The position numbers and the translations under genes were made by a program. 64,000 nt of DNA from NCBI RefSeq assembly GCF_057098645.1, contig NZ_CM169472.1. The stretch is one strand, 5' to 3'. The first letter of the stretch is position 1. The number at the start of each line of letters is the position of its first letter. Positions 27,061 to 27,375 of the stretch are shown here, piece after piece. A model generated the notes under the pieces. It saw only the letters and a program-made list of their open reading frames with translations, was not told where the DNA came from and searched no databases.

Positions 27061-27375
27061 TGGTCTGACTTATTTTTGTCCTCGTTACAAGAACCCTTTT
27101 CGTATATGCTAACCGTGAGCGGGAGTGAACAAGTCACCATAGCCAGGAACACTAGCGGCGTAATTCTTAAGCTGAGTGGCATTTCACCTGCGGTTTATCA
27201 GTGCATTCATAGTACCTTCATCAGCGAGATTGAACGAGTCAGCTTAGAATTTGCTGGCGAGGTTGTCACTATGAAGCATGAGAGTTACCCCTATGTTTTA
27301 TATAACGATTCTGTCCCCATACCTGGAACGGTAACTCTCAATCTGATCGGTTCCTGCGTTAGTTCACATCACGAC

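Follow-up and report, generated by a model that had tools for sequence, protein, structure and literature searches.

A decayed IS481-family insertion sequence is the probable origin of an unannotated segment downstream of betA in Escherichia coli

Analysis of a 64,000-nucleotide stretch of DNA (the window) showed that its unannotated segment at positions 27061-27375, directly downstream of betA, is very probably the decayed 5’ part (the first third) of an insertion sequence (IS) of the IS481 family, located on the minus strand and co-directional with betA. The account as a whole, comprising an IS481 relic just past the betA stop codon, a plus-strand ORF that is its shadow and a K-12 state produced by deletion, is put forward with confidence that is also high, if a shade lower. 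An origin is thereby given to an unannotated stretch that roughly one E. coli genome in three carries, with the first ~110 nt of the relic being found in almost all genomes of the species, K-12 included. The segment is an ordinary, hitherto unannotated IS481-family relic; IS relics and microhomology deletions are commonplace and nothing mechanistically new is involved.

Locus and gene order

The window is from the chromosome of an O145/O157-type E. coli, with positions 27000-27420 sharing 100% identity with strain RM9872. According to the RefSeq annotation of matching genomes, the gene order, all on the minus strand, is ykgH, hyxB, hyxA, hyxR, ipbA (synonyms FimX and HbiF), betA, betB and betI (Table 1), with the ipbA-betA spacer of ~1040 bp being without annotation. 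The G+C content of 27061-27375 was determined to be 45.1%, compared to 26.1% for the tract at 26336-27060 and 57% for betA, in agreement with the original prediction of a segment with normal G+C beside an AT-rich tract. The segment owes its near-normal composition to being old DNA of coding and IS origin, in contrast to the AT-rich tract, which is regulatory sequence of ipbA (fimX).

Table 1. Features of the window discussed in the text (minus-strand features may be given in descending order).
Feature	Position	Strand	Basis or remark
ykgH	21077-21745	-	RefSeq annotation of matching genomes
Intrinsic-terminator-like hairpin, CCAGTATTCATGATGCTGG and T-run	21831-21849	-	Terminator scans of E24377A and the window; fold of the E24377A spacer
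Left-hand breakpoint partner, GGATAT	21848-21853		Beside the ykgH upstream region
IS3-family element (IS629/IS1203-like)	23199-24412		hyxA and part of hyxB replaced
hyxR	24625-25419	-	RefSeq annotation of matching genomes
ipbA	25748-26335	-	RefSeq annotation of matching genomes
Stretch without detectable homology	27046-27105		60 bp, from the relic to the AT-rich ipbA upstream tract
Plus-strand ORF	27055-27531	+	TTG start, 158 aa; first 107 codons precede the betA stop codon (TCA on the plus strand, 27376-27378)
Transposase N-terminal helix-turn-helix pseudogene	27106-27279	-	~58 codons; residues 1-21 and 45-89 in one frame
Right-hand K-12 breakpoint	27267-27272		CACTAT here; GGATAT (ATATCC on the minus strand) in G12; transposase codons 3-5
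Transposase ATG	27279-27277	-	Alignment with the IS, ylbG and E. coli alleles
IS leader (IS nt 27-102)	27280-27356	-	Alignment with the IS
11-bp perfect inverted repeat	27340-27330 (TGAGAGTTACC) / 27289-27279 (GGTAACTCTCA)	-	40-nt loop
Left terminal inverted repeat remnant (IS nt 4-26)	27357-27379	-	Alignment with the intact IS and ylbG
betA	27376-29091	-	RefSeq annotation of matching genomes

Homology to IS481-family elements

A search of plasmid DNA using the allele of the segment found in strain G12 returned the first 60 nt of genes annotated as ‘IS481 family transposase’, and a search of E. coli DNA touched the pseudogene ylbG. An IS of 1201 bp on the Salmonella IncFII plasmid NZ_CP024167 served as reference. 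It possesses 26-bp terminal inverted repeats and encodes a transposase of 346 aa (WP_085398024.1) that scores 283 bits on profile NF033577 (cut-off 224), with an HTH_29 domain at residues 11-73. Comparison of this IS to the locus using blastn gave identities of 76% over 162 nt (G12), 74% over 128 nt (window) and 81% over 75 nt (K-12), while local alignment of IS nt 4-165 to 27379-27217 gave 74% identity with a z-score of 35 against shuffled sequences. Across 28 Gb of E. coli DNA, nt 4-165 of the intact IS matched the betA 3’ end of island-bearing genomes (E 1e-13 to 1e-20), and nt 4-112 matched that of E2348/69 (E 7e-10).

At the protein level, tblastn of the transposase against the locus identified 22/46 identities (E=3e-5; E=0.003 against the whole window). 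Residues 45-89 were located at 27231-27106 and residues 92-109 within 96 bp that are additional in the G12-type allele, all being colinear, and the window DNA matched the transposase region of the IS at nt 103-165 and 238-275. The relic can be assigned to the IS481 family as having once encoded a homologous transposase, of which residues 1-21 and 45-89 are matched. It shares no more than ~75% identity with the intact IS, and at the protein level the similarity is brief and broken by stop codons. Transposase residues beyond ~110 had no match anywhere in the 64-kb window, from which the right end of the IS with its right inverted repeat is also absent. The relic is without an intact DDE (rve) catalytic domain and is not an active element.

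These findings bear on the original prediction that the segment may be left over from a gene broken up on acquisition of the island. The segment is indeed a remnant, but of the N-terminus of an IS481 transposase on the minus strand, with its leader and left inverted repeat, and so the strand and identity envisaged were wrong. Nothing shows a gene to have been disrupted on the arrival of the island; the continuity of the IS across the K-12 breakpoint (see below) argues that the K-12 state is derived. A search for a phage origin of the segment returned no match. Truncation of BetA by insertion of the IS was also considered and rejected, since BetA of Pantoea could be aligned as far as residue 99 of the final 100, indicating no appreciable truncation.

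Structure of the relic

The relic is colinear with the intact element from IS nt 4 to ~369. The intact IS has TGTATTAGTCGCGACTTGATCTGACA as its left inverted repeat, to which AAAAATGAGTCGTGATGTGAACTAAC corresponds in the window; the outermost 3 nt are not recognisable, and the betA stop codon TGA (27378-27376, minus strand) corresponds to IS nt 5-7. Translation of the pseudogene in the minus frame gives MLHSDNLASKF, stop, ADSFNLADEGTMNALINRR, stop, NATQLKNYAASVPGYGDLFTPAHG, stop, H, the counterpart in the transposase being MLHTTNPVIKHKAGLLNLAEE...LADEGGVDALINRSRRAPNLKNRTDEATERAVVDYAVAFPAHGQH. The lesions comprise three in-frame stops and in-frame deletions of ~81 nt and ~15 nt. At 27105/27106, the window allele lacks the 96 bp kept in 86 genomes (those of the strain G12 type), the flanks of this indel being TGATAACCG/TGCTAACCG. 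The 96 bp encode transposase residues 92-109, tblastn pairing SDQLRKPGVFIPKRGVIS with SNELRKRGVFISGSGVRS, and a match to IS nt 385-408 had a z-score of 4.4. Local alignment of the IS to 27110-27000 of the window gave no signal.

This arrangement indicates that an IS481-family element landed right behind the betA stop codon with its transposase gene in the same direction as betA, and that it has since eroded, leaving the left repeat, leader, start codon and a stop-riddled helix-turn-helix stretch.

The betA stop codon is located inside the tip of the relic. The run of A at the end of betA (T on the plus strand; 27379-27384) was observed to be 6 or 7 long depending on the strain, with BetA being 556 or 562 aa according to its length and the extra MSRDVN being read from the inverted-repeat relic; A6/A7 slippage in this way adds six IS-derived residues to BetA.

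Comparison with ylbG and the intact IS

The E. coli K-12 pseudogene ylbG, located beside mnmH, is an IS481-family relic of the same lineage as the betA-side copy. Both share the left inverted repeat (TGTATTAGTCGCGAC...), the stem arms TGAGAGTTACC/GGTAACTCTCA and the start MLHT.NPVIKHKAGLLNLAEE, and both are truncated past the helix-turn-helix region. They differ in that ylbG is annotated and ~89% identical to the intact IS, whereas the betA-side copy is ~75% identical, is unannotated in the records sampled and has in-frame stops, deletions and the overlap with the betA stop codon. The IS of NZ_CP024167 is colinear with the window over the inverted repeat, leader and N-terminal HTH_29 domain; it possesses both inverted repeats and a DDE transposase of 346 aa, whereas less than one third of the element, lacking the catalytic domain, survives in the window. 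Full copies similar to this IS were found in 77/5426 E. coli genomes.

Comparison with K-12 and origin of the island-free state

Of 5426 complete genomes, 5146 have a match to some part of 27000-27420, but this match spans most of the interval in only 1795, with the remainder, among them E24377A and MG1655, matching only from ~27270 on. Positions 27273-27375 are present in 5146/5426 genomes and 27046-27269 in 1893/5426, the latter as a single copy that is always at the betA locus. The original prediction had offered native betA-downstream sequence as the other possible origin and proposed alignment to K-12 to locate the island boundary. This alignment placed the boundary at 27270/27273. The proposal holds for the betA-proximal 103-106 bp (27270/27273-27375), which have a counterpart in K-12 MG1655 and in further genomes free of the island, and fails for 27061-27269, which is absent there; the segment does not align in full to K-12 intergenic sequence lacking a coding homologue. 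The third that is shared with K-12 is IS-derived too.

The junctions of the window, G12, E24377A and MG1655 were compared. The 212 bp that separate ykgH and betA in K-12 occur in the window as two parts, a ykgH-proximal one of 108 bp at 21746-21853 and a betA-proximal one of ~103 bp at 27273-27375. Relative to K-12, 21854-27272 is extra DNA, with TAT on both sides here and GGATAT on both sides in the G12-type allele (86 genomes). In G12-type sequences, the hexamer ATATCC is found in transposase codons 3-5 and again at the hyxB-distal end of the extra DNA, with K-12 having a single copy at the join; the K-12-type sequence corresponds to one hexamer copy with everything between both copies removed. 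The K-12 junction reads ATGCTTCATATCC followed directly by AGTATTC. K-12 keeps IS nt 4 to ~113 (inverted repeat, leader and ATG CTT CAT AT) and then passes into unrelated ykgH-upstream DNA, whereas island-bearing genomes continue the IS in register past nt 113 (nt 114-165 and later codons), and for this reason the discontinuity is placed in the K-12 sequence.

The K-12 ‘empty site’ would, by a parsimony argument made without an outgroup, probably be the product of a deletion between the ATATCC repeats. Such a deletion, of 5.4-6.5 kb between the two hexamers, would have taken out what remained of the relic along with ipbA-hyxR-hyxA-hyxB. [quoted passage not shown] The rival reading, that the K-12 spacer is the ancestral empty site and 27061-27272 the right end of an inserted PAI-X/hyx island with a short target duplication, agrees with these papers and with the behaviour of 21854-27272 as a clean 5.4-kb insertion relative to K-12 with its TAT or GGATAT flanks, and the extra DNA is carried by only ~35% of complete E. 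coli genomes. It is nevertheless considered unlikely, as the IS481 homology runs on past the supposed junction, the break lying in the K-12 sequence as opposed to that of island-bearing genomes; insertion would require the arriving island to have brought along precisely the missing continuation of a truncated IS already present at the site, and to have been joined to it seamlessly. Comparison of the island ends with the flanks also gave alignment scores equal to those of shuffled sequences, with no long direct repeats or att-like similarity. An intermediate reading, that the island was inserted between betA and a native terminator, was revised because the IS homology runs across the junction. 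A scan of genome contigs with IpbA for a donor context in other genera returned one 2.8-kb contig of Escherichia sp., which stops short of the segment.

The segment lies between betA and the cluster known in ExPEC as PAI-X, the UpaB cluster or GI-4 (fimX=ipbA, hyxR, hyxA, hyxB). Relative to K-12, 27061-27272 counts within the extra DNA of this cluster, and 27061-27269/27272 fits the definition of PAI-X/hyx in being present with the island, absent without it and contiguous with ipbA. The segment is not PAI-X cargo, however, being IS-derived and having its first ~110 nt in cluster-free genomes also. Were the K-12 spacer a deletion scar, as favoured here, fimX/PAI-X in uropathogenic lineages would represent retention and not gain. 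This would bear on the use of fimX/PAI-X as a marker of acquisition and would change the likely history of a studied virulence-associated locus.

The plus-strand ORF

The predicted plus-strand ORF at 27055-27531, starting in the segment and then running antisense into betA, was confirmed to be present. Its frame is open somewhat beyond chance, with only 0.44% of 5000 dinucleotide-preserving shuffles being fully open over 27046-27375 (110 codons). Register arithmetic (27279 minus 171) showed that plus-strand codon 27106-27108 coincides with minus-strand codon 27108-27106. The ORF is a spurious, codon-for-codon antisense ‘shadow’ of the transposase-relic frame, extending via the IS leader into betA, and is not a gene. 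The frame stays open because it is the codon-aligned antisense of a former gene, a register that tends to be open since its stops require the rare coding-strand codons TTA, CTA and TCA.

The ORF is also without coding constraint. In alleles of phylogroup B2, a 1-nt deletion at 27322 is followed by a TGA, giving 93 aa as opposed to 158, and in the G12-type allele an in-frame TGA within the 96 bp extra at 27105/27106 results in an ORF of 57 aa. Substitutions relative to the G12-type allele (~20% DNA divergence) are distributed 13/9/11 by codon position. Values of dN/dS for the ORF were 0.29-0.69 and for the other five frames 0.33-1.01, with the comparison to the most divergent (G12-type) allele giving 0.69, which is inside the range of the other frames.

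That the ORF (93-158 aa by strain) is instead a real gene for a small protein, overlapping the end of betA in antisense, is regarded as highly improbable. The openness of the frame across the whole segment, its extent of at least 75 codons in all alleles examined, a ‘hypothetical protein’ label in some submitter annotations and a weak excess of third-position substitutions in close allele comparisons (4/6/12) speak for such a gene. The openness, however, is accounted for by the antisense register; the C-terminus is altered in B2 alleles and the N-terminus cut in G12, as described above; and the amino acid identity of ~60% at ~80% DNA identity is that expected without constraint. No Pfam or NCBIfam profile matched the ORF. 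In both a word-indexed search of 5.8 billion clustered proteins and an exhaustive HMMER scan of 1.84 billion representative proteins, only ORF calls from this same locus in E. coli were credited as homologues. RefSeq likewise annotates nothing over the ORF in the segment, the feature entry being ‘none’ in all 30 records listed of the 1894 that match. The spurious ‘hypothetical protein’ called here by some pipelines can be dropped.

Two further matches to the ORF were rejected. A repeat protein of 1262 aa (P0046, E=2e-4) matched only through a ‘PFSYxLTxSG’ motif counted six times and was judged to be a chance match. A fusion to CitMHS (P0044) was from a metagenome contig of 4x coverage joined at a short common word, and is probably a chimeric assembly; the contig (L011; ENA ERZ26859170 NODE_15514) carries a high-G+C CitMHS transporter gene together with window-like sequence from 27212 on.

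The leader stem

The leader contains an 11-bp perfect inverted repeat (Table 1) that is predicted to fold as a stem, lying 36 nt past the betA stop codon on the betA transcript. The last nucleotide of its 3’ arm is the A of the transposase ATG, and this arm also spans the likely Shine-Dalgarno sequence AAGG; the stem is followed by UGCUUCAUAG, with no U-tract. In a multiple alignment, the stem arms and ATG were identical in the intact IS, ylbG and all 13 E. coli sequences. Variable columns numbered 0/22 in the arms against 23/84 elsewhere in the flank (hypergeometric P=0.002, from only 8 distinct, related sequences).

In IS10 and IS50, a leader hairpin hides the ribosome-binding site of the transposase gene in read-through transcripts (fold-back inhibition). 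The relic stem appears similar at the sequence level, with its 3’ arm covering AAGG and the ATG and its 5’ arm lying inside the element. By analogy, only transcripts entering from outside would hold both arms and so have the start site hidden, and in an active IS such a stem would most plausibly keep read-through transcripts from being translated. In distinction from IS10 and IS50, the candidate internal promoter in the loop is only a weak consensus match seen by eye, and the gene that it would control is dead in the window. Here, the most that the stem could do is serve as a 3’-end structure of betIBA mRNA.

The invariant arms amid a varying loop and flank, their position shortly after the betA stop codon on its transcript, and the co-directionality of betA and ipbA, between which the first strong intrinsic terminator is a hairpin with a U-run at 26353-26330, could be taken to mean that the segment is functional non-coding DNA (an sRNA, a betIBA 3’ UTR or terminator, or a distal regulator of ipbA) kept whatever its origin. 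This is thought very doubtful. The stem lacks a trailing U-tract and has come down from the IS leader without change, which accounts for its presence without any local function, and 27061-27269 diverges by 5-9% between phylogroups and by ~20% from the G12 allele, in addition to the 96-bp indel. Constraint on RNA structure was not in evidence: Rfam gave no match at E<=1 over 25300-27600, the folding energy of the segment was no better than that of shuffled sequences (z -0.2 to -0.9), and neither strand yielded a compensatory pair in RNAalifold, the covariation term being close to 0. These three results led to the rejection of an sRNA or structured RNA. An sRNA candidate in the ykgH 3’ UTR, described in RIL-seq papers, lies on the far side of ykgH and has no bearing on the segment.

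Transcription between betA, ipbA and ykgH

In island-free genomes, a terminator-like hairpin is located ~107 nt past the betA stop codon; in the window this hairpin is 5.4 kb away, after the hyxB remnant (Table 1). Scans of the minus strand from 27375 to 26354 for an intrinsic terminator (a G+C-rich hairpin with a U-tract) gave no convincing site. The AT-rich tract has a C-over-G skew on the betA strand that is compatible with Rho-dependent termination. Judged from sequence, read-through from betIBA towards ipbA is possible.

A joint reading would place the fimX/hyx island beside the IS481 relic in the E. coli ancestor, with its loss from K-12-type lineages by one ATATCC microhomology deletion bringing the terminator hairpin to ~107 nt from betA; in island strains, betIBA would be without an intrinsic terminator of its own, having the IS-leader stem alone, and may be read ~1 kb into the regulatory region of ipbA (fimX). 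This combined reading is regarded as quite unlikely; if true, expression of the recombinase would be linked to induction of the bet operon, which is inducible by osmotic stress and choline.

A strong hairpin (-13 kcal/mol) followed by CTCTTTTTT was observed at 26330-26353 on the minus strand, just upstream of or overlapping alternative ipbA starts, and could insulate or attenuate ipbA with respect to upstream transcription. The hyxB-distal end of the extra DNA (21854-21900) was seen to open with a 13-bp perfect hairpin, CCTGCAGGCAGCA TACT GCTGCCTGCAGG, presumably the hyxB terminator, directly beside the hairpin at 21831-21849.

Other features of the locus

The window is missing hyxA and the 5’ part of hyxB, which are kept in the near-identical strains RM9872 and RM12367-C1. 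The IS3-family element at 23199-24412 adjoins hyxR and has a transposase with a programmed frameshift. In the gap between hyxR and ipbA, inverted repeats of 32 nt were found at both sides of the hyxR promoter switch (25443-25481 and 25717-25748), the left site being itself a near-perfect palindrome. The 270-bp switch element is precisely excised in strain G12, with a hybrid site left (L014, 607-707), a loss that looks like recombinase-mediated deletion of an invertible element; another genome (L016) has the right-end allele as in G12, yet retains the 270-bp element.

Between O145-type and B2 alleles, the AT-rich tract at 26336-27060 differs by ~14%, the ipbA coding sequence by ~1.2% and betA by ~5%, making for an unusually steep contrast in divergence between the ipbA gene and its regulatory region. 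Insertions of IS1 in or next to the relic, along with large deletions, were identified in strains TUM13064 (L015) and ET201 (L008); in one of these IS1-linked cases the bet operon is lost as far as pdeL, and in the other argF-side DNA is joined to betA.
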